Assembly (NCBI GenBank): GCA_052327205.1
Contig: CM126214.1
Location: forward strand, 181,040,001 to 181,104,000
Length of the DNA stretch: 64,000 nucleotides
Reading direction: 5' to 3'
Source: Somniosus microcephalus
Taxonomy: Eukaryota
Within the stretch, counting starts at the first letter, position 1, and each line of letters begins with the position of its first letter. This document shows positions 1 through 61,500 of the stretch, piece after piece. The notes under the pieces are model-generated. The model saw nothing but the letters and a program-made list of their open reading frames with translations, was not told the DNA's origin and made no database searches. The translations under genes were made by a program, and so were the position numbers.

Positions 1-91
1 TGGACCGGCTTAATCTGAGGCAGGTCTTTTGGTGTGTGTGTGTACACAACTCAACTCCCTCCCAACAAACAACAGGAAAAAAATCATCAAA

Positions 92-115
92 ATGAGCCTC
101 GAACACCTCTCCCAG
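92..115 (+). CDS. TOP1: TOP1 exon 1 coding part (MSLEHLSQ)
   Basis: tcaaaATG context, CAG|GTAGGT donor, phase 0; resembles human MSGDHLHNDSQ. Confidence 0.85.
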
Positions 116-3100
116 GTAGGTAGAAGCAGCTGTGAAATCTTAGACTTTGAAAAAAAAAGCTTTAGCGATTTAAAACTTGTGAAAAAATCCATTTTTTTCC
201 TGTCTGCTGAGCTGAGGGGGAAAAAAAAGTTTTAACGTGATATTTTTTCGATTTGCCTTGTAGATCAACACGGATTCTCGCTTAAACGGTGAGTGTTTTT
301 TTCCTGAAATCTCCTCACAGACTATTTTGTTTTGTTAATGTCTTTCTCTTCTCTATCCTCCTCTTTTTTCTCCTTTTTTTTTTGTCCTCTTGCTGTTTGA
401 GAGAGAAAGAGAGGATCAGACATGGCGTCCAGAGACTAAGTCCCGTCTACGTGCCCGCAAGCCCTATTGTTCAAATCAGCCTCCCGAATCATTGCCTTCC
501 GCCCGCCGCCCGCGGCCCCGAGCAGCGGCAGTCGCCGCCGCCGCACCCCGGCTTCGGGAGCCGGGCGCCGGCGGGCCGCGGGCGGGCTGGGCCGGGCCGG
601 GAGAGCGAGCGGAAAACCGGCTTTTCGGCCGTTAGGACTTAGTCTCTGCGCCATTTTCTTTTCTCTCTCTCTCTGTGTGTGTCTCTCCTTCGTGTGCATG
701 TTGCAAGAGCGAGGCTCCTGCATGGGAGCAGTAAAAATGTGAGCCGGGCATTGAAAATAGAAAGCTGGCAAGAAGAAGGGAAAAAGAGGGTTTATTTATT
801 TTTAATTTTTTTTGCAAGAATTGCACCTTTTTTTCTGCCTCCCTCCTCCAAAAATTTTTTTTTTTTGCAGTTCAATTTTCTCTCTGCTTGGTGGTGGAAG
901 CAGAAATGCCTCCACTCACATGGCGAGCAGCATCGTGAAGGTTATTTTTTTAAACAATATGATTCATCAAATTTTTTTAAAAATTAAAGAGCAAAATATT
1001 TTTTTTTCAATTTGCATCTTTTAACCTTCTCCCTGGTGTTTGAAATTCCTGGGGTAATATTGTATTTAAAAAATATATATTTTATTTTTATATGTATATG
1101 TGTGTGTGTGTATATATATGCTACTAGACTGACGTGTAGATACTTCTAGAAGGTGCTGCAGAGTGTATATTGTTTATATATTAATTTATTAACTGAAAAC
1201 AAATCTGTACTGAGATGGTGATTGTCACATCCTCTGACATGTGGAGTGCAAGCTTAATGTCCAGTGCAGTTAACGTTTCATTTTTTTAAATCTTAATTTT
1301 GCAAGGACAAAAAATAGCTTTCACCTTTCCCAAAGTCAATGGGGAACTTAGTGAGACTACAGCAGGGCAATGCCAGGGGTGGTGGGGATTTAAAAAAGAT
1401 TAGTTTTGTGATCAGTTAGGTTCCATTTAGCACCTCTCTCCCATCTCATCAGAAAGGATCACCGTGCATATTTGTATGAGGCTTAAAATGATTGTCCTCG
1501 GTGAAAATGAGTTAAGATATTGATCTAGTTAAAAGTTTTTCATTTGAAAAAGGTTGATTTTGATTGGAACTGTGTTGCATGTCATTCTGAATTCATGCTC
1601 ACCATGATAAGCCAAGTGCTTTTTAAAAAAAAATTGCGTGTGTCACCTTAGCTTGACAGGATCTACCAAAAATGCATCAAGTGCAACATTTTCCTTTTTT
1701 TTATAAGGTTCAACTTGCCCAATAGTATAGTATCTGGGTTTTGATTTTCAGTGTGTGGAAGCCATCCTGTCAAATGGCAGACCTATGCCAGGTTTCATGA
1801 GAATTGGTCAAGTACTTCAAGAAGGAAATGAAGGGAGCAGAGAATTGTACTTAACTGTTTTAAAATGAACGGAGAGCAGGAGGTGCATGAATGCCATTAG
1901 TTTTGTCTTGGGGAGGAGGTGTAGGAGATGAGTAATACAGTTGGAGAATATTAATGAAAAGAATAAAACCAAAAAAGCACATTTTCAAAAAAAACTACTT
2001 CAATTTGAAATGCATCTCATTTAATTTTGCTGATCAGTGAGGTGTTGCACCCCCAGTGATGCATTGGATTTGACTTTTCAGATTTCATTTGTAGAGCAGG
2101 GTGTGATTAGATTTGAGGGCCTTACTCCTATGAATATGCACATCAATAATTATTTGGATGGTTATTAAGTGAGATCCCATTTCAAGGCTATTCTCCTCAA
2201 TTTCTCTTATCAAGACAGTGCGGTTCCATATTTCTGATGACCCTTTGGTATTTTTGTGGCCGTTCTTCAGCTATGTATCTAGAGGGAGAGTATTGAGTAA
2301 GACTAATCTACCATGAGGGGCATCACAGCAGAGCCCAATCCAGTCCTTTTGTGAGCACATTTCAGCTGATGTCAGTGGATGGAGATCAGAAGCAGGAACC
2401 TTGTCTGACTTCTTCCCTTCTTTCGCCACTGAGATCAGCTCATTCAGCAATGGCCCTGGATTGAACCTGGGATCTTGGTCTGTTCCGTGCCAGATGCTGC
2501 ATTTACCACAAAGCCATCATGGCGCACAAGAATTTCTGACTTTCAGCTAAAATTCTTGAAAGTGATCCTGTGGAGAACAGAGTGGTATTGAACATGGTGG
2601 CTGACTAGCGGCACGTGATGTGAATTATGACATGGGTGGGGAGGTTGAGGGAACTTGGCCCTTCTACCGTCTCCTATTACTTCTAAACCCAGTACAGGAA
2701 ACTTTGTGCTATCCGGCGCCGACGGGACCAAGCTGCTGCCGTTCCCTCAAAACTGCCGGACACTCCAGAGCTAATGTTGAAACATACGGAGATTTATCAT
2801 CTCCATATGAATCAACAAACCATGTTGCTTAGCAACAGCCTCTAAACAGTCGGCAAGCGTCTCTAGCTGAAGCTGTTGCTTAGCTACAGACCCTGCAGAG
2901 CTTGACTGTTCAAAAAAAAAAAAAAAGCAAAGAAACGAAAAGAATAAAAAACGGCTCCTGATTTTTGCCGGTGGCCCCAGCTTGCCGGACGGTTCGCCTC
3001 CGGATAACACAAAGTTTCCTGTATTCCTTCCTCTTGATCCTTTTCCTGGAGCGCCCAACTCACTGGCAGTAGAGGGAAAGCATTGAGATCTGCATAGTCT

Positions 3101-4487
3101 GGTAACTGACTAACTGGAATATTTAAAGATATAAATTGAGGGTTTTTTCCCCCCTTCTGGAAGTGCGGGCTCATTCTGGGATCTGACTTCATGGGTGTTG
3201 GGCATTTTTACTCGAGTGTCTGCTCTTTACGATACAGCCTAGATTAACGTGGTGTTGGGCTGCTCGGCTGGTTGGGGAGTACGCAGCAAAGATTTATCTG
3301 ACCCATGTATGCGCACCTTCCAGCGGGAATTACTGATGATCAGCTACGGAATTTGCCTGCCCCCACAGCCCAGGAGAACTGAGGCCAGTTATAATACTTG
3401 CCTTTCTGGTTGAGACCAGTTGACTGAACAAGGACTGAAGATCAAAGCTGGGGCCTACCCGGTTGGATTTAGCTCAGGCTGTCAACTTACCAACTGTGCT
3501 AATGAGGGAACTCGCCTTTTTAAGAGAGTTTATTTATTTTCCCCTTGAATCAGTGAGTCATGCTGTGATGTGATTCCACTGATGCTGATAGCCCTCTACT
3601 ACCTTGCCTAAGTGCCTGCTCTTCTCATGCGAGCCTGGGCTGTTTCATTATCAAGGGACATCACAACAGCGTACGAGCTCTGCACGTGCACATTTTCCAC
3701 TAAGGGTCGCTGGCTGCTGTTCAGGAGAGGGGCAGTTGTGCTTTATGGAGGTGAGATCAGCCCAAAGCAGAGACCAGGGATCAAATGTGGGGCCGCCTTT
3801 GTGTGGCTCAGTACACACAGTATTTACCCAGTATGTTTTTTTTGGAGCAGCAACTTAATTCAGTGGGTTGAAGGAACTCTCTTTGCATTGGTAAGTATGG
3901 TCATTTACCCAAGAGTGCTTCAGCATCCATTGTGTATTCCACTCCCTTGTTGGGCTTTATTTCTCTCTCTTCTTAGAAAAGGGCGATTTGAATTTAAATG
4001 GGATGATGCTTTTACATCCAACAGTTCATGCTGTGGAATAACAACAGAAAATGCTGGAAAAACTCAGCAGGTCAGGCAACATCCGTGGAGAGAAATTTTG
4101 AGTTGCCGTTTCGGGTCGAACCCTTCTTCAAAATGCTGTGGGCTGTTTCTGTAATGAAGACCCATTTCTTTTTACGTGGCCAGATAGTTAGCCTGACCGG
4201 GGGGGAACCAGCCAGATACGATTGGGGGGTGGTGGTCACCACTCCACTCCCATCGGATGCAAGTACCCTGCTGGATGTCAACTCACTGGCCTCCTGCTCG
4301 CAGATACTATGACGGGAGGGCTGCTCTGCCCCCATCGGATGTGAGTACTCCGCTGGATGTCCCAGTATTCAGAGACTTCAGAATTCTCATCTCCACTCGC
4401 TTTGTCATATGTACATATATGCATCAGCGAGGACAAATTTTATATCTTCAACCAGTTCACCAGACTTTTTCTCTCTCTCTCTCTTTT

Positions 4488-4518
<31 letters not shown>

Positions 4519-7500
4519 CTACCCCTAAAGTCAAAAGACACTTTCTTAAAGCTTGTTATAAACTCTGTGAGGATAAGTGACGACCTCTGAATTTGGGAAT
4601 TGTCCTCAAGTTTTGAACTCCACTCCTAACTGATAGATTGGCTTGGTAGCAACCTTGATCTAGTTAAGTTTGATGTCAGAGTATTCAAGCTGTAGGTTAG
4701 GGCTCTTTTAACTAATTATAGTGACATTATCATAGTGATAGCGCATGTTGTGTAGGTGTTAATGCACCTACATTATTATTGGCTGGGCATGGCGCTGCAC
4801 AGGGAACAATGTTACTCATTCTAATAACTTTTTAAAGCCTGGCACGATTTCAAGTTTTCTTTTGCCTACTAATGCCATGCAAAACCCTCAAAACATTTCT
4901 AATATGACCTGAAACGTTAACTCTGTTTCTCTCCACGGATGTTGTTTGGCCTGCTGAGTTTTTCCAGCGTTTTCTGTTGTTATTTCCAATATGACCTGGT
5001 TGTTTTTCCCGGTAATAATGTTGGAAGTAGATGAGCAATAAATAGTGCAACACTTTTCAACGCTTCCAATTTGGAGGGGGAAATTTAAAAAGCTTGATGC
5101 AGGTGAGGGGCATAAAAGTAAGTGCGAGAGGGATTGGATTTCTCACCTGGCAGGAGGGCAGGGGAAACGGGACAGTAATTTGACAAACCCATGCGAGACA
5201 TTGAAGGAGAGCAACAAGGGCTGAGGGAGTGGGGAGGAAAGGAAGAAAGACGTTCTGATCCAGCGCTCCACATATCTGAGGAAAAACGATATAATCCTTT
5301 AGCAGTGAGAAGGGGGCCTGCTAGAGCATCATCACAGTAGCTTTCCTGGATGGAAGAGGGTTCTTTTTTGGAATGACATCTTCAGCTGACTCTTGCTGTT
5401 TAAGGGGTTAGATTTGCATTCTTCCTGTTCGTGAATGCTAATCACTGTAAAATAGTGCAAGTGACTGACTCTTCTCAACGTTCTTTCACGTTGCTGAGGT
5501 TATTAGTATTGAAATAAGATCTCTGATTGCTTTCTACTGCTAATTTCTGGTCATGTTTTTTTCGTATGTAGCTTATATGTTTGGGAACTACGTATTTTTG
5601 TTCAAAAAGGAACTGAAACCAATGAAATCCAAAGACTGAAATAGTGCTGCTTGTCAATAAGGTTGAGATTTTTGAACACTGAGTGAGCAATTAGCTCTTT
5701 GGAGTTTGAGGAATATGTGGTTGGTTCGCTTTGAATGTCATGAGGAAATTATTAAAATTCATACAGTACATACTGGTATAGAACTAGTTCAAGGTAGGCA
5801 TTCCTAGAAGACCAAACGCAGATTGGGTGACCGCTTTGCGGAACACCTCCGTTCAGCCCGTAAGGGTGACCCCGAGCTTCCGGTCGCCTGTCATTTCAAT
5901 TCACCGCTCCATTCCCACTCGGACCTCACCGTCCTTGGCCTCTTGTACTGTTCCACGGAAGCTCAACGTAAACTCGAGGAACAGCACCTCATCTTCCGAT
6001 TAGGCACTCTGCAGCCTTCCGGTCTCAATATCGAGTTCAACAATTTCAGATCATAACCTCGGCCCCTATTTCATTTTTACTTATATTTTTCCACTCCTTT
6101 CCTCCCCCCCCCCTTTCCTTTTGTTTCTCTCTCACACCTGGCAGCTATCTTTTGCCCTGCCAGTACACTTTACACCTAATCCCAGCCTATTACCATCTCG
6201 TCTAGCTTCTAATCTCTTTTACTTCTTTTATTCTTTTGTCCGATCGCAGCCCTGCCTTCGATCTAGTTCCTTTTCTCTCCAGTTTTGAAGAAGGGTCAAA
6301 CCCGAAACGTCAACTCAAATTTCTCTCCACGGATGTTGCCTGACCACCTGAGTTTTTCCAGCATTTTCTGTTGTTATTTCTGGTATAGAACTAGTTTTCT
6401 TTCATTTTGTGTTGAGTGCCCACCAGTACAGACTCTTTATCACCTTTGGTTCCATGCTACTGCTGTGTGGTTATTTTAGTGTGTGCTGAAACATTTTTAA
6501 TTGTGGCCAAGTAAAGGATTGGCATTGTGGCTTGGTTGCTGTGTCCTTTTGTTTCTGGATAAATGTTTGGATCTCTTGGGCAGACTGCTGACTATTGTGA
6601 GGGGAGGTTGTTGGGCAGTAACCCTTTACAGTATGTTTGTGCCGACTGGCTACAATCTAAAGCATCCCCCCACTTGCGATGTCTTTGTAGTTTCTGTTCT
6701 GAGTTTTGCATTTGCCCATCAAACTTGAAGGTCCAGTTATACAAATGCCAAGCAAGCATATTCAGCGAGGACACTTGAAAAGGCCCTCTTCCCTTCCCGA
6801 GGCAGGCTGCCTAATTAGATACGGTTCAAAATGTAACTGGTTAACTTGCCTCGTTGAATTGGTAGCTTTGGTGGTCTGCAGTTGTGTTGTTGACAATGGA
6901 GAGGTCACGTTGGTACAAGTCTTGGGGGAAGGGGAATGAATTATGTCTCCTCGGTGGAGGTCAAAAGGCACCGTCTGGACACTGTAGAGTTGTTCCATCC
7001 TGGTGTATCAGAATTATTAGCGCTTCATCGAATTCTGAATGGATGATTCTGCATGTTCCGTAGCTGTCTTGGTAAAGGTGAAGAGATCAGCTTCATACAC
7101 TTGGCCTGAGCACTTCCCCCACGGTGTCTCCTCATCTTCTGAAGATGTTAATATATGCTGTGGTAATGATTCTACAGTGCTGGCAGCCCTTTGGTGCCTT
7201 CCCCAAGTCGGCATTCTTTTAAGGGTAGACTTTATGCAGGTGATTTGATAATAGCCGAGGGCATCGCGGGTAGGCATAATCCTTCCCCATTTAAAATTCT
7301 GCTGTAAAGCTAAAGCTGATTAGGAGTGGGGAAGCCTGGCTGCTGTTTACCCCCTAAATCCAGGAGATATCTGATGGCTAAGGCAGTTCTCCCACTGGTG
7401 CCTTTAGTTGAGAGCACCGTGTACAGGTGGAACCTGGAATCCTCTTGGTCTGTGCCGCACTGCACCGAACCATGTGGTTCACCAGGAAAACGTCTCCATT

Positions 7501-10500
7501 TCTTTATCAAAATCTTTTTTTTTTCCCAGGGTGTGTTGTATTTACGTTTTTAAATGAACTTTCTTCCCTGGTGGCGCTGACTGTTGCTGAGCTGCCATTC
7601 CAAAGGGACCAAAAGCCCTCCTTTACTTTGCCCAGGTAGCCGTTCTTCCCATTTTAAGCCGTCTGCTACTTGCCTCGGGCAGAGTTGCACACGAGTTAAA
7701 TCCAATCCTGTCCTCGCCTGACTTTCGTGTGGCTGCACCTTCCGGCAGAGTACACTGAAACCGGGTGGAGGAGTCTTAGCTTCTACCCTCAGCAAGGAGA
7801 CCAAGGCCAACTTTAGCTGGCCAAGCTGAGCTCACCTGTCTCTGCACGGGGCAGGAATTGAACCTGGGGCCATCAGGTCTGTGTGGCTCTCTTGCCCACT
7901 AACTCACCAAGGTAGTTGATTTCTGTCTCGCCTTCCATTTCTGGAGTAAGTACATGATCCTTTCCGCTATGGCTGGTTGCTGAGTTTGTGAAGGTGATTC
8001 CCCTTCCTCTTTTCTTGCCCCCCTACCCCACTCCACCCCATCAAGGAGAAATCCAAAATGGAGAGTCATGAACCCCCATCTTGCCTCTCTGTTGGAATGT
8101 GCTGGTACACCAACACATTCAGTGCCCTTGACCTTCAACTACTGGGTAGAAATTGCACAAGGCAGACTGGAGAGTCTGCATTTATGCTCCCATTTCTGGT
8201 TTAGGCCCAGTTCCGATCTCTGCTGTCTGATTTGCAAAAGGGTGGGTAATGATCTCTGCTGGCAATCCTGGCAGAGCGAAGTGTTTCCCTTCCACCCCTC
8301 CCTCCCAATCTTCTCTCTGCACCTTCCTTCCCATCCTATCGCCATGGTTGCCAGCAATGGCCGGCCTTCATTCTGTTCTGGCAATATTTCCAGTCCAACG
8401 CCGTAAGGCAACTCTTGCAAATGCAGAACCTTTGACAATCTAAAATTTGTAGCACTGGTCTTTCATTATGGTTTACTATTTAGTTCGTACTAGTCTGTTT
8501 AGGTCTGGCTTTCTACATGACTTCAAATTGCCATGATCGAGACCATATGGTTCTGGTTACGTGCTAAATGTTGATTGTAGAAAGATATGGTCTTAATGAG
8601 CCTAGTAACAGCAATGGATATTTTATTTTTTGCTTTATTTGTTCTTTTCCCCCCTTCCCCCAATCCAGAAAGCATCCCAACAGTTAGTTGGGTTTATTCA
8701 CCAGAGGTTGGTTTCCCATGAGATGGAGCACGTTTTTCTATTGTGAGGCCAGCATTCAGGCAGTGGCTGTTGCTTCCCCTGGGTATCACCGGTCCAGGGT
8801 GATTTGAAGCAATCTAGAACATTCTTGAATATGTACCAGCTTTGACTAAAGCTTTGTGTTTCTCTTTAAATCCTTTTCTGTATTTAATGCAGGCAGCACA
8901 ACAGAACCAGATTCTTTCTTGCCTAGCAATATTAACACGGTTAATGAGCAGGACAGATTGTGCTTGGCCTTTGCAGTAATACTTTTTAAATCTGATTTTA
9001 TTTCTTGGCGTGCGGTGAATGAGAGGAGCACGATAACTTTTTAGTGAGATTATTTTGTGACCAACCTTCCTGCTTTATTTAAATGACACCACTGAGTGCG
9101 TGCAACAAAATGGTGCTGACCTTGATATGACTTGCTATTACTGTTCGGATGCTAGGATTGATTTGATCAGCGAGTGCAGGAATGGTCTCTGATTTCAGGA
9201 AAAGTATATTGGATCTCTATCTGGTGTGGTGTGTGAAGTATTTACTTCGTTTTCCCTTTTTGTCTCTTTTTTAAAAAATTTAATTTATTTTTAAAAATGA
9301 TGTTTTCCCCATTCTTCCTTTCCAATACCTCAGATAATTACGCATTTCAATCTATAGGGCAGCGTTTCCTCGTGCTCCATAGCAAGAATGAGTTACTTCG
9401 GTCTTGCTGAGCAGTAGGGCCAAGTCCTGTCTCCATTGTTGGAGACTGATAATAAGTGCAGCTTAATCATGTATGATGTTGACTGTATGTATAGTGTGTT
9501 TGGTCTAGTAGCCTTACTGAGACTAGTGTTCACTATGGGTTTCCTTCCTTCTCTCCATCCCCACCTCCAAGTACAGGGACCCTGAAGGCAGTTGTAGCAA
9601 TGCTGCAAGTGATGGTGGCTGCCTCAAGATAAATAGATACAGACAAGGAAGACCATTTGGCCCACTTCAGCTCATCCATTTTGAAAATGTCCTCCAGTCC
9701 CCCCCCCCCCCATCACAGTATCCAACTGCTTCTTAATCCAAGAGTTTTTAAACTCCTCCACCTAAGCATCCAGTCCATGTGTTGATCACTGTGCAAAGAA
9801 CCTTCTTGTGTCAGTCCTAAATTTTCCATTTACTAGTTTGAACCTTTGTCCCCATTGTCTTACTCTTACTGGTGGTGTTCTGGATCGATCTTTTCTGTAC
9901 TAATTACTGCCTTGCATGAGGTTACCGCTTAGCTTTTCAGCCATGAGAGGAGATGACTAACGTTTCACCAGTAGTTCCTCCGATCTTTGACACTAGGGAT
10001 CAGTCAGACAGCTCTCTTTGAACTGCATGCAGGGCTTTACATAAGAACATAAGAAGTAGGCCTGCTCCGCCATTCAATAGGATCATGGCTGATCCGAACC
10101 TAGACTCACGTCCACTTCCCTGCCCGCTCCCCGTAACCCCTAATTCCCTTATCAGCTAGGATGCTTTAATGTCTCCTTGGTGTCTGTGACCAGAGCTGGA
10201 CATAGAACTCAAGGGTATCGTTTGAAGAGCATTATATAGTTTGAACCTGACTTTGTTCATGCAACATGAATACATCTTGCATATATCACATTTTAAATCT
10301 CATACTTTTCTGATTTTTGTTCCTTGGAAATATGAGCTAAACATAAGAATTAGGAGCAGGAGTCAGCCATACGGCCCCTCAAGCCTGCTCCGCCATTCAA
10401 TAGGATCATGGCTGATCTTCGACCTCAACTCCACTTTCCCGCACTATTCCCATATCCCTTGATTCCCCTAGATTCCAATATTCTATCCTCAGCCTTGAAT

Positions 10501-13500
10501 ATACTCAATGATTCAGCATTCATAGCCCTTTGGGGCAGAAATTTCCAAAGATTAACAACCCTGAGTGAAGAAATTCCTCCTCATCTCAGTCTTAAATGGC
10601 CGACAACTTTATCCTGAGACTATGTCCCCTAGTTTTAGACTCTCCAGTCAGGGGAAGCAACCTTTCAGTATATACCCTGCCAATCCTCCTCAGAATTCTT
10701 ACATATTTCAATGAGATCATCTCTCATTCTTCTAAAATCCAGAGGGTATAGGCCCAATCTACTCAATCTCTCCTCCATAGGACAACCCTCTCATACCAGG
10801 GATCCTTCCTCAGATAATCAAATATACCTCTAAGCACTGCTCTTGCATTTGTATAATCCTTCAAGCAGCCATGTCTTCCTGAAACTTTCGCTGCACTGAC
10901 TAAATGAGCAACACCACAGGAGATCTACTGGTTATATACAGGATTCATTGTAGATTCACCTGATGGCTCAGGTCACAAAGGTCCTTGGTTTGATCCCCAG
11001 TTTGAACAGAGTTAGCTGATTTCAGTTGGGGAGTTACAGTTGGCCTCCGTCCCGTCTGTTAGGGTGGGGAATTGATAGCCAGCAAATCCTGCTGAAAGTG
11101 TGCCAGAAGGCAGCCAGTGCCCATGGATCCTTACGTCAGCTAAGAATTGATGCCTTCAGAAGACGAGGAAGCATATTGGTGTGAAAAAGATTAGTACAGT
11201 AATGATGGCAAGACTGGATGGATACAAATATGCGCAATGCAGTATTTTAGTAAAATGGAGATGTGCAGGAACTAGTGTGTGTTTGTGTATCTTTTTGCTA
11301 ACTTGTGTAGAAATTCCGAGATTGCTTGCATTATTGACGAGCTGGAAGGAAAGGAAACAGAAATGACAGCAGCCATTTGGTTTTTTTCCCCCTCCATATA
11401 CTTGCAGACTCCCACAAGTCCAGCAAAAGCGAAGAGAAACACAAGCATAAAGAGCACAAGCATAAGGAGCACAAGTCAAAGGATCGGGACAAGGATCGCG
11501 AGAAATCGAAGCACAGCTCCTCCGGCTCCAAGAATCATAGCAACAGGTACCGTTGATCATTTGTGCATTTTCTACCTGCTGTGAAATGTCGCTGTTCTGC
11601 GTGCGGACTGGGATTGAAACTTTACAGTGCGGTTCATTTGGGCGAGCACGTCCCTCGCATTGGGAACGTAATGAAAGGACTAGAAATGATCACAAGTTGA
11701 CTGCACCTCTTGAGGTGATCAGGGTGTCTCCTGGGTCGCTAATAGCTATTCTGACGAGTGCTAAATGAAAATGGCTGTTTGTGACCAACCACCAGCCTTG
11801 CCATAGACAGGTGACACTTGGTATTTTAAAAAATTTTCTCCTCCCTAACTTTCTCTGGGGTGTGGTGTCCTGGCTGCCCTTTGATACCTGGCCAAGGGCC
11901 CAGTATTCATTTTGCAAGGCTTTGGTGGTATCTGCGAGATGCCGACTACTGATGCTGAAGCATGGCAGCCGCGTCTAATTCTGTCCTTGCTCAGTGACAA
12001 CACTGATGATTTGTAATAGAACTATGGCGTTTTTCCTGCTTCATGGGCACCCGGGGTTAATAATGCCTCCAGTGCCAATCTGGCTAAGATCAGCTAATTT
12101 GGCACGGAACAGGGATCATCCGGCTCTTCTATAGCTCAGACTGAACCAACAGAACCACAGGATGTAGGTTTGAGCATCCCCATTACTGCTCTGAGGTCAA
12201 TTGGCCTCTATATCTGCCCACCTTGGGAGCAACTGGCTAGTGGCATTGATGGGCAGAGGTTCATCTGTTCCCCATGGTCTGGGATGTGAAGGAAAAAAAA
12301 GGGAAGCAAACTAGATCCAATCATTAACTATCTCTTTCCCCTCTCCAGTATACATACAACAAATATTGGCACACTATTTGATTGTGGGGGAGATCACAGT
12401 CAGTTTTGGTCCTGTCCTTAACTGACATCCACTTTCTTGCCAGGGTCATTGAATAGCAGTCAGGAACAGAACCCGGTGTGATTTTTTTTTTTCGTGTTTG
12501 TCACGCCTAACCCAAAGGTACAGCGGCCAATTATAGCGCATTTTACGTGAACTGGCGGCAGAGTCCGGCTTGGCTGTGGTGCCCGCCCCAGTTGAATAAG
12601 GTGATGCTTGCGTGTGTTGGCTCACACAAAGAATGGCTCCTTTGGTGAGGTGCTGGGGGTGGCTGTGGCTTTGGGAAAGAAGGGATGAAAATTGATGAAT
12701 GTGACGGGAAGCTCGTTTTCTGATTTGTCGGGCAACTGTATAACATGCTTTCTGATTATTCCTAATGAACTGTTCTGGATGCCTTCAGGTTTGTACATTA
12801 GGCAGCATGTCCGGCTTGCAAAGACTGAGGTAGAGTTTACGATTTGACGTACCTTGCACGATGGGAGCACATATTTTAAAATTTGGCAATGGATGTCAAC
12901 GTGACTTCCGTCCATTCGTTTTGTCGCGTGGAAAGTCATGCCGTGATCCAAACCCTGAATTTCCAATATGAAGAGCGCTCCTGTTTGGGAAAACATTCCT
13001 TCTTTTATCTCCTGTGCAGGTGCAGTGGGTTGGAATGTAATCTTTCTAGTTGCTGAGCTTTCCGTCAGGGAAATGCATTTTATTTTTTAAATTGCCACTT
13101 TTTCCAGTGCTGAATGGCCAACCATTGACCCTGCAAAAAATCTTTGCCAGAGGGCTTATGGTCCTAAAGTTCCGTGATCTCAAAATGCCTGATAACCCAG
13201 TTGCACAGAAGCGGCAATTGTAAATCGAACTATTACAAGTGGTGCCCATGGCCAGTAACTCCTCCTTCTGATGCTATCCTGCAGAAAGCTAGGAGGAGTT
13301 GAACTTAATGCTTACCATTAGTGTGTAAATAGCTTCCTAACAATGCCTGTAACTTGCATCTCTTGTCTCCCGTACGCATCTACTTTAAGAAACGTCTCTA
13401 ACCAATTTGAACCCGCCCTCTTGTTACCCGTGTTGCATCCACTTTGTAAGCTGGAATAGAAAGTCACTGGCAACCCTGTGATGCAGTCTAGCCTGTGGGT

Positions 13501-28500: not shown

Positions 28501-31500
28501 GTTCCGAATGACGGGAAAAGCTTATTATGGGATGTCTAGTTCGGCTATCCATTCGATGTAGAGTAAAATTGGGTGCAGTGTAATACCAGCCTTGCACCCC
28601 ATCCCGCCAGTTTTCTGACTGGCGGATTAGGTTCAAATCGTCCCGTGTCTGTATTTGTGTCTATCTAAAAAGTCAGACTCTGCTGCAGTGATCTCGTGTA
28701 GCCCAATAAGCTGCCAACTCTCTTGTTTTGGTTCATCTGAATAACTCTGGAGGCGCAGTTGGTGACGAGGGGAGAAAGTTGGCAGGAATGGTGTGCCTTG
28801 TATAGCATGTAAACCTACAGTGTGGCTTCTGTAGCCCAGTGTCACGGACCTCTCTCTGTTTTGCAGTGAGCACAAAGATTCTTCGGAGAAGAAACACAAA
28901 GATAAAGAAAGGGAGAAAGACAAAGTAAAGCACAGAGATGGGAGCTCTGACAAACACAAACATAAGGACAAGGAGAAAAGGAAGGAGGAAAAGGTATTGT
29001 AGTTAGAGGTAGCTGGGCATTAGCCAATTGTCATTTGTTTCAACCTACTTTGCGCAGACATTTTATTCGAGGGTAAGCTAGCAACTAATGCATCCCATTT
29101 CTATTTTGCCCCCCTACCCCACACACGCATATCGAAACGCTTTCCCATTCTACCACCAGACAGTTTCACCAGCCTTCAGTTGCGTGTGCGATCTGTTTTC
29201 AACATTTCACAGGTTGTGCTCGGCTCCCTGTTGACTAGTGTAGACTGGGCCACTTTGAGCAGACTTGTCAAGATTCTTGGCAGGGACCAGAATAGCTGGT
29301 TAATAACTCGCTGCAAAAACGATACCAGTATAAGCTGCTCCTAAGGTAGCAGCAAAGCCAAGGAGTGTTCCTGATTGTATTTTAGAACAAAAGAGAAGAT
29401 ACATTTTTTCCAGAAAAGTCTCCCTTGTAAATGACCTGTAGAAACTGTGAACAGAGTTCACAGTTTCTACAGGTCATTTACAAGGGAGAATTTTCTGGAA
29501 AAAATGTATTTTTTTTGTTTAAAATAAACAGGAAACTCCTTGGCTTTGTGCTACATTGGGTTGGGATGCGGTGCTGGGTACGTTGTACTCTCTGACGTTT
29601 AGAAGAATGAGAGGTGATCTCATTGAAACATATAAGATTCTGAGGGCTTTACAGGGTAGATTTAGAGAAGCTGATTCCTCTGGCTGGAGAATCTAGAACT
29701 GAGGGGGTGGGGAGGGCATAGTCTCAGGATAAGGGGTCGGCCATTTAAGACTGAGATGAGAAATTTCTTCACTCAGAGGGGTTGTGAATTTTTGGAATTC
29801 TCTACCCCAGAGGGCTGTGGATGCTGAATCATTAAGTATATTCAGGGCTGAGAGCAATAGATATTTGGAGTCTCGGGGAATCAAGGGATTATGGGGATCG
29901 GGTGGGAAAGTGGAGTGGAGGTCGAAGATAGGCCATGATCTTATTGAATGACAGAATAGGCATATGGCCTACTCCTGCTCCTAGTTCTTATGTACCCTTC
30001 AAGCACGGGGCAGGGTTCTAGGGTTAGATATTTGAAGTGAACATGATAGCACTGGTGGGCATGGGAGGTGCCCTTGTGCTGAAATCAAGAGGTGTTCTTG
30101 GATGTGCTTGTATTGTAATAGTTTGTAGAGAAGAGGCCCTACAGATGTGCACTTACTAATATTTTTTAATTTTCTTTTTAAAAGGATAAGATCCACTCTT
30201 CGAGTAGTAGTTCTGGGGATAAAATGAAGAAGGAGAATGGTTTCACAAGGTAAGGGTCCCCTTTAAACTGTGTCGGCTATTAGTCACAGGGAAGAGGGTG
30301 TTTGGTCCAAAACTTTTAGAATGCATGCTCACTGCTAACTGAGTTTCACTTAAAGGTAGTGGAAATTCTTGGGAAGTGACGAGGGGGTGAAAGAGAGTAA
30401 CTCTTGCGGAGGGCGAGCGATGAAGGAGAGAGTCCCTCATTTTTGTGGGGGCAGACATGTTAAATTTTTAAAAAATCTTATCAACCCGCAGCCACCAAAA
30501 TAAGATTGTGGAGTTTTTTTTTAACAAACGCCTTGTTCCCTTAATAGTGGATGTGCTCCAGGGATGTCTGAAATGTTTTTTCTTTTCTGTTCTCCTGGTT
30601 GAAAGACAGATCACTGTGCTAGCGATTCCTTGTACTTGCACCTATTGGAATTGTGGAATTATATGAGGATAAACTAGATTAATCTCGAACAGGATTCATC
30701 TGAATTCCAGCAGTATCTGCCCCATGACCGCGATAGTATAGGTTTAGGAACTGGCAGGCCTAGCTCTCGAAGGTACGCTGTTTTTTAAGGCTGCCCGCTC
30801 TATAAAATGAACCACTTGGTTATACACGAGCTGAAAGTTTGTTTTTTGTCTCTCGATTTCCTTCCTGTCCTCCTTAGCCCTCCTCGTATAAAGCAAGAGC
30901 CAGAAAATGATTACGTCCCATCCATTAAGGTGGAAAACAAGCCATTGAAGAGAGCCCGTGAAGATGATGAGTAAGTTTCCTTATTAAAGCTCTGTGTCGT
31001 CCTTGTATCAGGTACAACATTCGGAGGGGATGGGGGATGGGGAGCGAGAAAGGGAAATGCCTCATGGGGGGGAAAAAACCAGCTGGTGTGATGCCCATTT
31101 CCTGGATGGTGCTAGTTTTAGAGCAATACGAGGCACAGTCAGACCACCAGAAAGGAATGTTATGGGTAGAAGTCGAAAGAACTCTTCTCTCTCACTGTGC
31201 ACAGCAATGAGAGAAAATACCAGATGGTGTGTTTTTGCAAGTGCCAATGGGTCTCTTACATCCACCTGAGAGTGCAGAGTGGCCTCTGTTTAACATCCCA
31301 TCCAAGAGACGGCACCTCTGCACTGAAAGATCAGCCTAGAGTTTTTTAGTCTCTAGAGTGGGGCTTGAACCCACGCCCTTCTGACTCTGAGCCAAGGCTG
31401 TTACCCTGGAAGATGAGAGCTTTTCCACTGAAAGACAAGCCCCTCCCTTCATGGTTTTTCCAAATTGTCTCTTTTTTAATAATTTTTAGAAAAATCCTGG

Positions 31501-52500: not shown

Positions 52501-55500
52501 TTGTCGAAGTTATTATTTACTACGCAAGACCGGATTGATGAACACTGAGATGCAAAACTTCCAGCTGTTAGAGAGGGGAGCAAGAGAATTTGTTGCCTGC
52601 TGGTAATATAAAACACAGCCTTTTGAACTGTGTAATATCAATAGCTGGGCAAATATTGCTGCTGATCACAGAAACCCCACAGTGCAGATAGAGGCCATTT
52701 CGGCCCATCGAGCCTGCACCGACACATATCCCACCCGATCCCCGTAACCCCTACACCAACATATATCCCACCCTATCTCCGTAACCCCACACATTTTAAT
52801 CCCCCTAACACTAAGGGTCAATTTATCATAGCCAATCAACCTAACCTGCACATCTTTGGACTGTGGGAGGAAACCGGAGCACCCAGAGGAAACCCACACA
52901 ACCACGGGGAGAATGTCTGTGTGGAGTTTGCACAGTCACCCGAGGCCGGATTCGAACCCGGGTCCCTGGCGCTGTGAGGTAACAGTGCTAACCACTATGC
53001 CACCGTGCTTGGAAGCTGGCAAGTAGCGCTAGATGGTGGGCATGTTGGTGGGTACAAGAACTAGGCTTGGATCTGCTGAAGGACAAGCAGCAACTGTAGA
53101 AAGGTGAACAGCGAACTGACAGTTTTTCTGTCTTGTGTTGGCCTTCGTGCCATCGGCACACTCCATTTGATTTCTCCTCGCGTCAAGGGTTGTCATCTTC
53201 GACTGAAGGTCTGTCGCCACTCGAAACAGGAGCTAGCGAGCAAAAGGGCATTGGTTTCAAAAGCAAATCCGATGCCCAATTTAAACCTAACTTAAGATAG
53301 TGATCCAAACGTGCCTCATGTTCTGTATAATGGCAGGATGTAATCGGGGAGGGAGGGCCTATATTCCTGTTTTTCAGTAACTATTGACCTGCTAATTGAA
53401 TCAGATTCTCAGAAATTGCCAGTTTCAAAGACGTGCTATCCAGTGTTCCCTGTAAGCTACGCTTTGTTCTGCGCGGCCTATTTCTTTTAATGCGCGATCC
53501 CATTAAATTTCTGCGCATGCGCGGTATTTCCAGTGTAAAAGCTTGAGCGGCCTGCGCAGGACCTAGCAGATTACTGCACGGCCACGCACACGGGCAGCTT
53601 AGAGGGAAGATTACTGCTATCTCCACATGCCATTAATTAACCTTGAGCAGTTTTGGGCCCGTGCTTGGCACTACCTGTCAACACTGACCCTGGGCCTAGG
53701 TCATCAGTCACCAGCTGATGAACCGCCCTCAGTCACCCACAGCTTAGAAAAACTGACCGTGCTTGTTCGGTTTAAATAGGGTGAGAAGGATTGGCAGAAA
53801 TACGAGACTGCTCGGACGTTGAAGAAGTTGGTCGACAAGATACGTGCACAGTACAGGGAGGACTGGAAGTCGAAGGAGATGAAGGTCCGGCAGCGTGCTG
53901 TCGCACTTTACTTTATTGACAAGGTGAGTGAAGGAAATTGTTGCAGGTTAGATCCATGTTGTGCATGGTATCTACCTGAATGGAGATAGACCTGGGTGGC
54001 AGGGATGGAGGACAACTGAGGGAGATATATTCCTCCACTCTCTAACTCTAGACCCCTTCAACATATCATTCTGTTAACGGGTTCCTCCACCATGGCTTGA
54101 TGATCCCATTTTACTGCACCTCCAACATCTTTAATACCAAAGCAGCCCTTGCCTCAGAGACTTCCTGTTTTATAGGAAGTGTTATGTGCTCACCCCAGAA
54201 TTAGCATGTTAAAAAAGCTAAACAACAAGAAATAAGAAAGACCTTGCATTTATATAATGTCTTTCACAACCTCAGGACGTCCCAAAGGTGCTTTACAACC
54301 AATGAAGTACCTTTTGAAGTGTAGTCACTGTTGTAATGAGGCTGCATAATGGATTTATTAATCTCGAATTACCACTTTAGAATCATTGAGCAAAAGATCT
54401 TCGCCAAAACATTGTACATCTGGTCCAGAATATTGAGGCAAATGAATGTAACTCTCACACCAAGCCGAATCATGTCGGAAATAACTTTCCTCATGGGGAG
54501 AAGAACTTGGAGTGAGTCAAGTTTTCGTGCCTGCACAGTGCACTTCCTGACGGCTGACTTGATTTGTTCCAATAACTTACATCTCCTTGGCTGGGAGCCA
54601 CATAGAAGAGATCTATGTGGGCAGGGCGAGAATATATCTGATGCAATTCCATTTTTAAATGTTTTGGATGCTTCCACGTAACCGATCCTTAGTTGCAGGG
54701 TCTGTGCAAATGCAGTGAGGTGCAAGTGTTTCACTGCAGGCTCCTTCCCGACCAGTGCCTCCCCAATCAATTTGCTCTGACTGTTCCTTTTCTCTTTCAA
54801 TGTAGCTAGCCCTGAGAGCTGGGAATGAGAAGGAAGAAGGGGAGACTGCAGACACGGTGGGTTGTTGCTCCCTGCGAGTGGAGCACATCAACCTGCACGC
54901 CGAGCTCGATGGTCAGGAATACATGGTGGAGTTTGACTTCCTGGGTAAAGACTCCATCCGATATTACAACAAAGTGCCAGTGGAAAAAAGGGTAAGATTT
55001 GGTGGGACTGCTGTTGTAGTCATTCTTCATAGTTTCACTCCACTATCAGTTCGGTTGTTAGAAGACGATGTGTAGCTGAGCCAAAACCAACCAGGGAGGT
55101 CCGCCTCCCGGTTTGATTCTCAGTCTGTGCCAAGCTAGCTGACCTGTTGTAGAGGTGGCAGTGTGGGTGCCGGGGGCTAGGGTCCCATTCCTGATCGTTG
55201 CCTCAGTGACCCCTGTGGGAAAGTGCGGATAACTGGTGAGAATTTCATTGCACTCCACTGTGAGGCCTTTCACAGTCAAAAGGCCCACTATGCTGTCTAC
55301 AGTACCTCACTTGGCCACCTAGACATGGTGCTGGAGTGCTGTTGGCACGTGAGGAACTCGTTTATATAGCGCCTTTCACGACCACTGGACGTCCCAAAGC
55401 ACTTTATAGCCAATACAGTACTTTTTGAAGTGTAGTCTCTGTTGTAATGTAGGAAACGCGGCAGCCTATTTGCGCACAGCAATGCTGTGATGACCAGATA

Positions 55501-58500
55501 ATCTGTTTTTAGTGATGTTGGTTGAGGGATAAATATTGGCCAGGACACCGGGGCTTACTCCCCTACTCTTCTTCGAAATAGTACCATCGGATCTTTTACG
55601 TCCACCTGAGAGGGCAGACAGGGCCTCGATTTAACATCTCATCTGAAAGACGGCACCTCCGACAGTGCAGCGCTCCCTCAGTACTGCACTGGAGTGTCGG
55701 CCTAGATTTTTGTGTTCAAGTCTCTGGAGTGAGACTTGAACCCACAACCTGCCGACTCGGAAGCGAGTGTGCTACCCACTGAGACACGGCTGACACAGCA
55801 AGGGGAAAATTGGAACTAACTTTTTAAAATTAAGTTTTTGTGCTCCACCAGTAGTTATTTCAAGATTGCACAACCTAGCAATCAATTTAAGTGCAGTCTG
55901 GATGATTGTACTTCAATGATGTACATAAACTGGCATTCAAGCGTTTTAAATGTTGCATTACTTCTGACATGCATGTGTGGTGTATATGAAACTCCAGATT
56001 ATCTGTGTTTTAAAATCTATTCAGAAGTAAAAGCACAATCCCCTTGGTATATCTCTGCCCCCTCCCAAATTATCCATTATTCTGTATATGGATCATCTGA
56101 ACTCGTCAGTTCGAATATAGCTTGTACCTCCAACCTAGATAACGTTATTCGAAACCCCACCATTGGATTACAGTTAAACTCTGAAAAGGTTCCCTCTGTA
56201 ATACAGGCCATTACATTGTTTGGCAAACAGTAAAACTGATGCCTCGTTATCATTTGTAACCCAGATAAATGCATCCTGGGATCTTAATGAGGCTGAAAGC
56301 AGATTATTTTAAATGTAGGCTTTGTGGAGCTATTCCATAGATCGGTGCTGCTAATGTTGTCCCTTGGTCACCCCCCTGTGGCCAATATCATGGTTAAAGT
56401 TTGGCATTTTTTATCTACCATGTTCATGGCACAAGCCAGTACTCCCAGAGTGGATCTTTGAACTGCACTATACTGAAGCTGAAATTCTTTCTAGTTCGGA
56501 TCTATTGGAGGGTGGGAGGAAGCTTGTTTGTAGTCCACAGTACTGTTAATGCATTTGGTCCTGGTTTTGTGTGTTTTAACATATGGTGTACATGTTCTTG
56601 CCTACTCCAAGTGTTGTGAAAGTTTAAAAGCCTGTTAAAAGGGTTGTTGACCTGACTATATCGGCTTGTTCTTTGCAGTATTGTCAATCTGTTTTAACCA
56701 GGCTTCCAGCCCTGCAGGCTTGGCTTTCATCACTTGTTTACCAGCCTCCATAGTACACTCGGTACTGTAGTGCGCAGTACAGTCTGTACTTAATTAACTT
56801 CTGTCTTGGCACTTGGCTGGTGTTGCATAGCATGAAATAAGCTTCTGGTTTTTTTTCTCCAGAAATTAGAACCAAGGGATTGGTCCTGTGGGATGCACAC
56901 TTGTATGTGGGTATTGTCATTGTTTGATGGGATTGTCTGTATAATGTATTACCTAAAAATGAGGATAAACCCTGTAGAAACTATGTAAATGTTCAGTTTA
57001 CGTAGAACTTAACAGCACAGAAACAGGCCATTCAGCCCTTGATAAGTTGAGAATGCACCTGACCGATCTGCACTCCTGTAAAGTAAAAGTACCTGAATAG
57101 AAAAGGATAAAAAGGATGGCGTGGGGGGTGTGAAGTTTATTTTTTTTTAAGTACTTTTCGGTTAAGTGAAGTTGCAGTGCCTCGTGATATTCTTGCCTTG
57201 TGTATCTAAGGTGTTCAAGAATCTTCAATTATTTATGGAGAACAAGCAACCTGAAGATGACCTTTTTGACCGGCTCAATGTAAGTAGCAGTGCTGTGCAA
57301 TGTGAGTGGGGCTCACGGGGAATCTGATACTGCTTTACGGTTAATTGGAGTAGCACGGCATGTTCAGTTTAGTGCCACAGTTTGGTGGATCGCATGTTTT
57401 ACCTTTCTCCCTCATCCACTGTTGCTGTGCACTGTCTCTTGTGTTGCGTAACTTTAGGAAGGTGCTCCGCAGAGGTCGAGCACTTCCTACAGAGAAGGGA
57501 GCAGTGCCTTGTTGTGGCCAGTTCCAGGACTGCTTCTTTAGCCACTGGCAATGTAGGCCCTGTGGTACGAAGGGGGAAGTGGGTGGGGTCGTACCTTTTA
57601 TTTTGGGTCAGGGTGATGGTTTTTACTACGCGAGCAGTAACTGCCACTGGTGGAGAACACTGGTGTTGTGGGGCAATGTATGTCCGGTGGCTTTTGGCTC
57701 ATGATAACAAAAGACTTGCATTTATACAGCGCCTCTCGCGATCTCTGGACGTTCCAAAGTGCTTTACAGCCAACAAAATATTTTCGAAGTGCAGTCACTG
57801 TTGTAATGTAGGAAGGAGCCAATCGTTCTAATTTACTCACCATAAAAATCAATGTTCCCATTAAACTGCACGGCCGCTCGGCAGTCTGGAGGTCCCGCGC
57901 GGGCTGCATGCCAGCTTTTACATGGGAGAAACCCCGCATGGTGATAATTTGAATGGGCCCCGCAGCCAAAGGGACCGCGCACGGGGGAAAAAAAATTAGA
58001 AGGAACATTGCTTATAATGCCCTTAAATTTCAATTTTTCAAGGAATGTCCATTGCCATTTTAAGTGGTGCAGCCCACACCTACCTGTTTCAGATGTTTCC
58101 ACAGTCTTTTTTCTCTCTTTATCCCCTCAAACACGCGCGCGCACACACACACATTGAATTGAACACACATGGGATGCATCTGGTGTCTTTACCGAATGAC
58201 CTGGGCTTCACAGTTATATCCTGTTAACCAGATTCTCTCTCCGATAGTCATCAGTGATGTACCTAGCAGCTCAAAACTTGTTCACACACACCACCTGATC
58301 CACTTCCTCCCCCAGCCTAGCATTCCTGGCGCCCTCGTGCATACATTCTACTCCATATTCTCTGGGTGAGCGTTTGAAAAAACATCAATGCTCCAAATCC
58401 CTCTGCTTTTTCATGATAAAATGAAATGACACAGTTTAAGTTGCTCTTGTTTGAGTAAAGAAATTCTAGAAATCGTCTTCGATCATAGTATTCAGGTGGG

Positions 58501-61500
58501 GAGTGGTCGTGTAATGGAGCTTCTATTTAGCACTGATTTTAGTTTCAGTCTCCAGATTCTAGTTGATATGCTATTTCATACATGTTTTACTGACTTTTTT
58601 TATATATAGACTTCAATCCTCAACAAACATCTCCAGGAACTAATGGACGGACTTACTGCTAAAGTTTTCCGTACTTACAATGCTTCTATCACCCTGCAGC
58701 AGCAGCTGAAGGAACTGACCAACCGTAAGTGAAAGTTGCAATGCCATCTGTGTGTTGGCGCCAGGCCGGAGCCAGAGCTGCTTTCTTCCCTCCTATGCCA
58801 GTTTTCATAAGGTGTCCCCCTTCCCCATTCCAATAGTAACATTAAGTACTGGTTTAGTTGCTTCAAGATAAGGCCAGGGTCGGGTGTTGCCTTGATGCGT
58901 TCGGACGATCAGTTTTGATCATCTCCCTGATATATTGCCTGTAGATTTTTTTTTTTAAATGCTTTAGATGTTTCCACAGTCTTTTTTTCTCTCTATCCCC
59001 TCAAAAATCTTTTCTCTTTTTTTTGTTTTGGTTTTAGTCCAAAACCTAATGCAGATGGTGAGGTTTAAATCTAGAGTAATGAATACTTTTTTGGAATGAT
59101 GCCAGGCCAGTGTTCCTGCAGAGGGATCCAGGTGACCTAAATTGCAAGAGCAAAGCTTGGCTTGTTTAATTGAGCCATAGTTTGAATCGGGCGAAGAGCT
59201 CAGGAAGGGGTTTGGGGTAACCTCTGTCACTGCCGTGGTATTTTTTGTTCAGCGTATATTGTTTCTTTGACATAAATGTTATAATATTGAATTACATTGA
59301 AACTTGGCCCATACTGTGGCGTAGCACTGATGTACGAGAGTGACTGCCGACTGTGATCTGTGCTGCACTGCAGCAGCACCACCTGTGCTACTGCGCTTCA
59401 TTGTGACTGCACAGCTCCTAATAATCTGTTTGTTTGTTTCCTAGCGGATGAAAATGTCGCAGCAAAAATACTTTCTTACAATCGTGCCAACCGAGCAGTC
59501 GCTATCCTTTGTAACCATCAGAGGGCACCCCCAAAAACATTTGAGAAGTCAATGCAGAACCTGCAGACCAAAGTAAGTAGGAGCGTTTCCCCCACCCCTT
59601 AATCCCTGTACAAAATAAACAGCTGTTAAAGGAACCAGTTACTTTCCACCTGGAGTCGTAGCGAGCCATACAGACCAAAGTTTGATTCTCCCCTCTGCTG
59701 TTGAGTTAACTGATCACAGTTGGCTAGGAAGAGGAAATATCAGTCAGGGTTCCTGCTCCTACCAGTATCCAATAATCCCCATGTGTGGATGTCCGGTGAG
59801 AATTGGATTTTGTCAATTGTGATGCCCTTTGTGGTCGAATAACCGTCAACACTCACTTGCATATGATGAATGGCTACCTGAGTGATGTACGCAAGAGCCT
59901 GTGATTTCAAGAAAAAGAAGGGAAATTGCAACGGAAATGTAGGCCAGATGATGCGGCTGATCTGCTGTTGATACCCTCATCCATTCCTTTCGTTACCTCT
60001 AGACTTGACTATTCCAATGCTCATCTAGCCAGACTATCACTTTGCACCCTCTGTAAACTTGCACTCATCCAAAACTCTTCTGCCTGTACCCTAACTTGCA
60101 CCAAGTCCCATTTACCCATCACCCCTGTGCTCGCTAACCTACAACGCCTCAATTTTAAAATTCTCATCCTTGTTTTCAAATCCCTCCTTGGCCTCGCCCC
60201 TTCCTATCTCTATAACCTCCTCCAGCGCTACAACCCTCCGAGATCTCTGCACTCCTCCAATTCTGGCCTCTTGCGCTTCTCCGATTTTAATCGCTCCACC
60301 ATTGGCGACCATGCTTTCCGCTGCCTAGGCCCTATGCTCTGGAATTCCCTCCCTAAACCTCTCCGCCTCTCTACCTCTCTCTTCCTTTTAAGATGCTCCT
60401 TAAAATCCACCTCTTTAACCGAGCTTTTGGTCACCTGTCCTAATGTGGCTCAGTATCGACTTTTGTTTGATAACGCTCATTTGAAGCACCGTGGGATATT
60501 TTACAACGTTCTAAATGCAAGTTGTGATGCATTACCAGTTTTCTTTGGATCGAATTAATGTTGTACAAGACGCCGTGATGCAGAATGTGAAGAGACGGGT
60601 CTGTGCCTGAGGTTCTCCACAAAGTTTGAGATTTGAATTTCGGCCATATTGATGAAGGTAGCAAGTGGGTGAACAAGGCCAGTTACTGCTTGTGACCGGA
60701 AATCTGTCTGGTTTCAAATCCTAAAATATTATATTTAAACATTTATCACCAACGTTCTTTCCATATTTATAATCTTATTTCATTTACTAGTCTACTAAGC
60801 TATTGCACTGCCACCAGCTGTCTCAATGGGACTTTGGTTGTTGGACACACAGCTCAGTTTGGGGTTGGAAACAGGCTCTGTGGACACCTGCCTAGTAGTA
60901 CTTGAAGTCTATTTTTGATGGCCCTTAAGCAGAAGCTGCCTGATTTGAGGTGCAAGTATAGCACATTTCCCAGTTCACTGGTTCCCTTTCTTGCTGTTTC
61001 CCGTGTAAAAGTGTTTAACTAATGCCTATTTTGCTTAAAACACTGCAGAGAGCAGTTAAAAGTATTCATTGTTATTGTCATGAAATAATCAAGTGAAATC
61101 TACTTTTGTTCTGTTTAATTTTACTTTAAGAAACCTGATTGCTAGTTTATAGCCTGAGATTTACGGTCAGAGACCAGGAGAGCGCGATGGTCTTGTTATA
61201 TGTTTAGGTGGGCCTATCGACAGTATAATGGGTTTATTGTTTCCCTCTTCTCCCCTCCCACACCCCTCCCTCAGGCACACCAACTCCGAGATAATTTTGG
61301 ATTAAATCTTCAATTTGTTTTGAAGATCTGGATTTTCTGTTGTGTTCAAATTAATTTTTTTTCCTTTTTTTTTTCTTTTAGATCGATGCAAAGAAAGAAC
61401 AAATCGGACTAGCCAGGAGAGAGCTGAAAGGCGCCAAAGCTGACTATAAAGTTAGAAAGGATGAAAAATATAGAAAGTAAGCAGTCTATACTTTTTTTTA

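Follow-up and report, generated by a model that had tools for sequence, protein, structure and literature searches.

A conserved inverted repeat in intron 2 of shark TOP1 and its possible link to TOP1 feedback and the rDNA spacer

Intron 2 of the shark TOP1 gene contains an inverted repeat with perfectly complementary arms, and the question is whether this element is a selected RNA fold, a relic of a mobile element or of chance, or a set of DNA sites through which the gene is regulated. The window analysed here is a stretch of 64,000 nt of Somniosus microcephalus DNA, and positions refer to it unless another locus is named. The start of TOP1 was read from the window sequence: the coding part of exon 1 (MSLEHLSQ) occupies 92–115 on the plus strand and exon 2 occupies 264–288 on the same strand, a 25-nt exon with AG/GT ends that is in frame with exon 3. 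Exon 3 begins at 11408 and intron 2 extends from 289 to 11407 (plus strand). The exons of the catalytic core (PF01028) lie at 53780–59578. One TOP1 exon is identical at 60 of 62 residues to solved TOP1 chains in PDB, and the same exon scores 123 bits in the window gene versus 103 bits in a paralogue on contig C7. Judged by its coding sequence, the window gene is nuclear TOP1. The 5' end of its transcript lies upstream of window base 1. In RNA run X21, two reads cross an end of the aligned stretch, and of the end bins just the first has any depth. Two raw runs of RNA labelled as this species, covered to 24% and 31% of each, gave no reads over 153–760, at a depth too shallow for intron RNA, editing or ends (the first exon bin reached just 0 and 3.7). 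Contig runs X16 and X19, two of five such rows guessed to be RNA, yielded only short or low-complexity matches.

The paralogue on C7 is a second TOP1-family gene (L024-L043, G000:C7:57.62-57.82 Mb, minus strand) and is probably TOP1MT. Several K/E-rich sequences up to at least 57,768,697 are candidate 5' exons, which, if they belong to this gene, would make a long N-terminus for TOP1MT. Intronless, broken topoisomerase I retrocopies are present at L013 (G000:C18) and L014/L023 (G000:C28); they are 91–100% identical to exons of the C7 paralogue and are adjoined by transposon-like sequence.

The element in intron 2 is built of nested segments. A GA tract at 399–415 faces a CT tract at 657–673, a simple repeat (both plus strand), with weak predicted pairing (pair probability 0.60–0.64). 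Inside these tracts are the outer 6-bp arms, ACATGGCG at 420–427 and CGCCATTTT at 649–657 (both plus strand), in which 422–427 and 649–654 are perfect complements over 6 bp beyond a 2-nt bulge at 428–429. CGCCATTTT is the sole plus-strand copy of this 9-mer in 174 kb, and both outer arms resemble YY1 sites. Arm 1 (430–444, minus strand) and arm 2 (635–648, plus strand) are complementary without mismatch over 14 bp (430–443/635–648). Between them lie an inner 5' flank (445–489, plus strand), a GC-rich middle (490–592) and an inner 3' flank (593–634, plus strand). The middle has a GC content of 72%, one half being C-rich and the other G-rich, and includes perfect pairs of 13 bp (506–518/573–585) and 7 bp (547–553/559–565). 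The sequence-only reading that drew attention to this locus had reported these complements, and all of them are present as described; its GA/CT pair (399–414 against 655–672) is also in place, with imperfect pairing at a probability of about 0.6. Within the window, there are 15 perfect inverted repeats of at least 11 bp within 400 nt, and four others of at least 14 bp occur at two other places. By simple arithmetic about 0.1 such repeats would be expected, and the repeat by itself is only modestly unusual; it is regarded as non-chance because it is conserved. Elsewhere in the window, 29353–29548 is a long nested foldback with perfect arms of 14 + 19 + 34 bp and a 3-nt loop, probably a mobile element, and 2693–3023 is a MITE-like element of ~330 bp whose terminal inverted repeats measure 16 bp and which has further copies, several of them, in the vicinity.

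The element is a single-copy sequence. The stretch 390–690 has one match in the 6.4-Gb genome, the paired-arm pattern occurs at one place genome-wide, and the remaining copies of the arm alone lie mostly in the rDNA spacer. No target-site duplication flanking 422–654 or 430–648 was seen by eye, and the genome holds no match that would make the element a multicopy transposon, which bears out the earlier opinion that it is not a MITE. A scan of 1–3000 with Rfam 15 gave six weak matches, all far below gathering (E 0.13–4.2). No similar element was found in 200 kb around the C7 paralogue, where the start of the paralogue was not located, and a 17-mer scan of metagenomes hit 14 loci, 0/14 of which had the second arm inverted.

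Conservation was examined, at 80% likeness, in a single DNA run from each of four organisms (C, D, E and F) out of the five with 10–14% of the sampled words. D, E and F have most differences in common and represent about one lineage. In all four species a single contig covers exon 2 and both arms, and no substitution is listed in the arms, with the provision that differences near the ends of aligned pieces may go unlisted, which concerns 644–648 of arm 2, and that two rows are absent from the listing. The sequence is alignable from 398/399 in three of the four species and from 410 in the fourth, so that ACATGGCG falls within the conserved piece in 4/4. On the 5' side, there is one difference in the 70 nt of 410–479 in organism C and four in the 91–92 nt of 398/399–489 in D, E and F; on the 3' side, four differences occur in the 59 nt of 593–651 in D, E and F, and eight in the 89 nt of 563–651 in C. 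The middle has diverged with its length exactly kept, 103 nt in D, E and F and 83 nt (480–562) in C. The aligned pieces stop at 651 because the repeat at 652–691 is skipped in alignment, and nothing orthologous aligned past this simple repeat in the contigs of the four species.

The surroundings of the core behave differently. Intron 1 is far more diverged in D, E and F, with 16–17 substitutions and 13–15 gap letters in 89–188, and 300–397 is unalignable and changes in length. In all four species, the core is better conserved than intron 1 and conserved at least equally to the coding exons. Arms that stay while the spacer drifts had been named beforehand as the pattern to look for, and it is seen in 4/4 species, with the spacer length fixed in addition. 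Because the arms and inner flanks are kept nearly unchanged, the outer flanks drift and the middle is fixed in length, the aligned sequences indicate that the element is selected and is not a transposon. Further into the intron, a strong 3' splice-site-like tract is present at 855–870, and a third ACATGGCG at 918 and an ATTAAA at 983 stand among T tracts. A poison exon or early poly(A) site was considered here and rejected, the 855–870 tract and the ATTAAA at 983 being unaligned in the orthologous contigs.

The sequence-only reading had proposed a multibranch structure of about 270 nt, selected as an RNA fold or as a DNA stem-loop. RNA folding of 395–680 gave −160.6 kcal/mol with a z of −7.2 (0/200 shuffles as good; z near −6.5 under block shuffles), and pairing of the arms in the nascent RNA of the whole 5' region was predicted with P 0.97. 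Stability beyond composition is therefore a property of the whole element, and the outer arms drive it. The interior 444–634 folded alone had a z of −1.6 (14/200 block shuffles as good), or of −2.4 when its halves were shuffled (0/200 as good), the middle 490–592 alone had a z of −1.5 to −2.2, and the pairing of the conserved inner flanks was matched or beaten by 76 of 1000 shuffles. No fold preference for the transcribed strand was found: the plus strand reached −139.5 with 2 G-U pairs and the minus strand −145.9 with 6, so the opposite strand is equally good or better. Folded as DNA, 395–680 had a z of −6.65. The GAAAA-ccggc-TTTTC hairpin is missing from the minimum-energy fold, its bases pairing long-range there instead. 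Among the listed substitutions, 601 (changed in 4/4 species) pairs with 483 in the model, 595 (organism C) pairs with 496 and 604 is unpaired; partners 483 and 496 sit where the alignment ends or fails. As regards compensatory change, no arm change is listed, and the letters of the diverged middle are outside the alignment output. An RNA fold of this kind as the object of selection is not supported so far, given that the interior barely exceeds composition, that the minus strand folds as well or better, and that arm-type sequence occurs upstream of the gene and in the rDNA spacer without a notable fold.

The arm had been treated in that reading as a fold partner only; it is also a recurring sequence motif, which was missed, and a recurring motif can by itself explain a perfect inverted repeat. 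Exact matches to the 13-mer number 404 across the genome, versus 104 for the reversed control. Eleven of 14 loci inspected, which were picked from the listed places and lean to clusters, are one repeat with the same flanks, and 18S rRNA adjoins 8/8 of those repeat loci scanned. The sequence of window positions 431–444 recurs without change (14/14 nt) in the rDNA, 2531 bp upstream of 18S. A second rDNA copy (13/14 nt) lies in tandem 57 bp further upstream and is a duplication, not an independent occurrence. The rDNA-context pattern has 367 matches versus 324 18S starts, therefore about one per rDNA unit. Only 22 of 273,240 non-simple 14-mers from 374 kb (8e-5) match the rDNA unit; the match was noticed post hoc, and over all 14-mers of the 250-nt element the chance is ~0.02. 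An equally long low-complexity match to rDNA is also present upstream. A second word common with rDNA, TCAAATCAGC, was dropped because 10-mers often match the 19-kb unit by chance.

The spacer tandem (L059:2943-3013; G000:C40:8852382-8852452) is located between duplicated promoter-like repeats and 133-bp repeats and is a candidate TOP1 or terminator site of the rDNA of this species. Its fold is not notable (z −0.49). On the same strand as the spacer tandem, GACTAAG occurs 237 bp after the 28S end (L074:8447-8453), in the C39-type unit too, and is a possible polymerase I terminator; this 3' ETS site and the 13-mer have just 7/13 letters in common. In two metagenomes, a non-coding-looking 248-bp tandem repeat (L052:600-1100 and 1759, = L049, L051) carries, within 1.9 kb, five CTAAGTC cores on one strand, and 20 nt of it are identical to window 429–448. 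It looks like a eukaryotic rDNA spacer, the available part containing no rRNA.

The core of the arm points to a known substrate of the enzyme itself. The oligos CL14 and CL25 presumably derive from a Tetrahymena high-affinity site. According to the accessible text of PMC1636438, these oligos contain GACTTAG and are cut by TOP1 between GACTT and AG, the enzyme's own sequence preference is loose (mainly T at −1), and the references name, for the promoter region of Tetrahymena rRNA, a hexadecamer preferred by TOP1. The arm core GACTT-AG corresponds to positions −5..+2 of this standard cleavage substrate. It is on the template (minus) strand in arm 1, with a predicted cut between 438 and 437, and on the non-template (plus) strand in arm 2, with a predicted cut after 640, and the two predicted cuts are 203 bp apart. 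Both arms carry the full core, as do the two upstream sites and rDNA copy 2; in rDNA copy 1 the letter at −5 is C. The match to the standard oligo is limited to 7–9 letters, and the A/T tract that follows the cut on the 3' side in CL25 is absent at all six sites, which by sequence therefore fall outside the Tetrahymena site family.

In window coordinates, GACTTAG stands at −303 (minus), −22 (plus), 436 (minus) and 636 (plus). These are 4 copies within −303..642, where 0.068 are expected, versus 23 in the other 373 kb, and the cluster ranks first among non-simple 7-mers. Four copies were reached in 0/5000 shuffles and three in 1/5000; as the arms are not independent, the fair count is three copies (~5e-5, Poisson), and several GC-rich 7-mers of the same region have similar p-values. 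The upstream cores (L002:9697-9703, minus; L002:9978-9984, plus) are 281 bp apart and inverted like the intron pair, and their fold is not notable (z −0.01). Just upstream of the −22 core is an NRF1-like sequence, GCATGCGCA. Genome-wide, the core beside an NRF1-like motif has 11 matches versus 7 for the control, and GACTTAG is not a generic promoter motif. No GACTTAG cluster was found in 200 kb of the C7 paralogue. A switch in which the −22 site pairs with arm 1 was considered and discarded (−14.3 versus −34.1 kcal/mol for the arm pair).

We tentatively propose, from the sequence features above, that the element is an inverted pair of TOP1-type cleavage sites through which TOP1 feeds back on its own early transcription, and that it probably acts as DNA rather than as an RNA fold. 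TOP1 would nick GACTT-AG in both arms, the template strand being cut at arm 1 and the non-template strand at arm 2, and a single GC-rich nucleosome perhaps lies between the two predicted cuts. With TOP1 plentiful or trapped, a covalent complex would form on the template strand at arm 1 and halt polymerase II a few hundred bases past the start of TOP1, and such early stalling would lower the output of full-length TOP1. The foldback of the nascent RNA may then be a by-product or a second layer. This direction of the effect is proposed because elongation is blocked by trapped TOP1 (PMC3806802, accessible part). A feedback link to TOP1, suggested in the sequence-only reading, thus stays plausible, and the RNA fold that it gave as the means is what lacks support so far. 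A more far-reaching form of the proposal, which we consider rather unlikely, is that vertebrate TOP1 has a sequence-defined site, which occurs in the rDNA tandem and, inverted and at fixed spacing, as a pair in its own intron 2, and that it titrates itself against rDNA demand by self-nicking that stalls polymerase II.

Several other explanations account for parts of these data, and two of them, an RNA stem and another DNA-binding factor, are strong competitors. It is possible, though doubtful, that the nascent TOP1 pre-mRNA forms a conserved stem here, which a protein uses for pausing, termination or intron 2 splicing; the protein may be TOP1, recognising RNA that mimics its DNA site, and the middle would be a length-constrained hairpin. 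A stem agrees with the z of −7.2 and the arm-pair P of 0.97, with the stem-like order of 14 bp, 2-nt bulge and 6 bp, and with a middle that diverges at exact length, and it directly explains why complementarity continues past the shared 13-mer (one more pair, then the bulged 6 bp). A compensatory change is also possible at 601, which changed in 4/4 species and has its partner 483 at the alignment edge. However, the interior is weak (z just −1.6 to −2.4), the inner flanks pair like 76/1000 shuffles, the minus strand folds better (6 versus 2 G-U pairs), two of the three listed substitutions break model pairs unless unseen partners changed, and the rDNA match and the two upstream cores are left unexplained by a stem. 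The rDNA match is the starting point of another explanation, to which we give a limited and rather low probability, namely that the 13-mer is the site of a different DNA-binding factor that the rDNA spacer and TOP1 have in common. Such a factor, for example a zinc-finger protein or a terminator of the TTF1/Reb1 type, might act with the YY1-like sites to couple TOP1 output to rRNA synthesis or road-block polymerase II. TOP1's preference is loose, whereas an exact match of 13–14 nt suits a multi-finger or Myb-type factor, and a YY1-like neighbour is found at each arm. The position of the rDNA tandem between promoter-like repeats and 133-bp repeats is such as mouse and Xenopus spacer terminators occupy, and GACTAAG occurs once, 237 bp after the 28S end, presumably near the position of the Xenopus T2 site. 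What speaks against a factor of this kind is the agreement of just 7/13 letters with the 3' ETS site, the TOP1-type core rather than GACTAAG in the two upstream TOP1 copies, and the fact that no factor with such a motif was identified.

The two remaining explanations have little to recommend them. It is extremely improbable that rDNA spacer RNA bearing the sequence of arm 1 base-pairs with arm 2 in trans, opens the stem and so couples TOP1 to rDNA activity: the predicted duplex of −31.8 kcal/mol, versus −34.1 for the internal arm pair, would allow it, but the intramolecular stem is predicted to be nearly complete, and rDNA spacer RNA and TOP1 pre-mRNA are in different nuclear compartments. A neutral relic is very unlikely, whether it be what is left of an old foldback transposon or complementarity that arose by chance in a CpG-rich patch, with motif matches that are coincidental. 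It would be in line with the other perfect inverted repeats of like size in the window and with a GC-rich middle of C-rich and G-rich halves, but the single copy speaks against it and it is largely refuted by a core conserved at least like the coding exons in 4/4 species.

The element was also compared with known systems. Autoregulatory conserved intronic RNA structures occur in RNA-processing genes, and the shark element is like them in being a conserved inverted repeat, placed in an intron close to the 5' end of a gene whose dosage matters; it differs in that the aligned letters show no covariation, in that no Rfam match or conserved poison exon was found and in that the arm recurs outside stems. 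Polymerase I terminator boxes, such as the mouse Sal box bound by TTF1 and Xenopus T2/T3, resemble the rDNA copies in their spacer place after promoter-like repeats and in the partial copy just after 28S, whereas only 7 letters are common with the 3' ETS site and an inverted pair in a polymerase II intron is foreign to such boxes. Human TOP1 intron 2 may have a similar arm pair, and older work on TOP1 promoter and intron elements exists. The Tetrahymena rDNA TOP1 site with CL14/CL25 (accessible text of PMC1636438) has the same GACTT-AG core at −5..+2, and shark copies of it stand in tandem upstream of 18S, within the rDNA spacer; the shark sites are without an A/T tract after the predicted cut and also form an inverted pair inside TOP1. 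In bacterial topA homeostasis in E. coli and mycobacteria (PMC10969213, accessible part), a topoisomerase I gene is similarly proposed to sense the activity of its own enzyme, but there the enzyme is type IA and promoter topology is used, while in the shark a type IB enzyme and sequence-defined intron sites are proposed. In yeast rDNA, both the replication fork barrier and the 35S promoter have Top1 hot spots, which are site-specific cleavage complexes in the spacer as well; the main site is Fob1-dependent and has no TOP1-gene link in the accessible text of PMC4005688. A full-text literature search, which covered few subscription journals, listed nothing on the element or on TOP1 feedback via intron 2, and the accessible parts of Veloso 2013, Mabb 2016, PMC8866115 and PMC9570105 contain nothing on TOP1 self-regulation.

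TOP1 is an essential enzyme and the target of camptothecin drugs, and the way in which its level is set in animal cells is poorly explained. In one study of breast cancer lines, TOP1 gene copy number was no predictor of protein level (PMC6884793, accessible part), for which other explanations exist. A conserved element of 250 bp with defined sites would make feedback testable by a few point mutations. If the more far-reaching form of the proposal is true, it would describe a self-cleavage feedback loop for a eukaryotic topoisomerase, with an RNA hairpin possibly mimicking the same site. A natural vertebrate site common to rDNA and TOP1 would bring back the question of a regulatory use of TOP1 sequence preference, which is known from a ciliate rDNA site. 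Even with another protein as the partner, a motif common to the rDNA spacer and TOP1 would represent an undescribed link from rRNA synthesis to topoisomerase supply.
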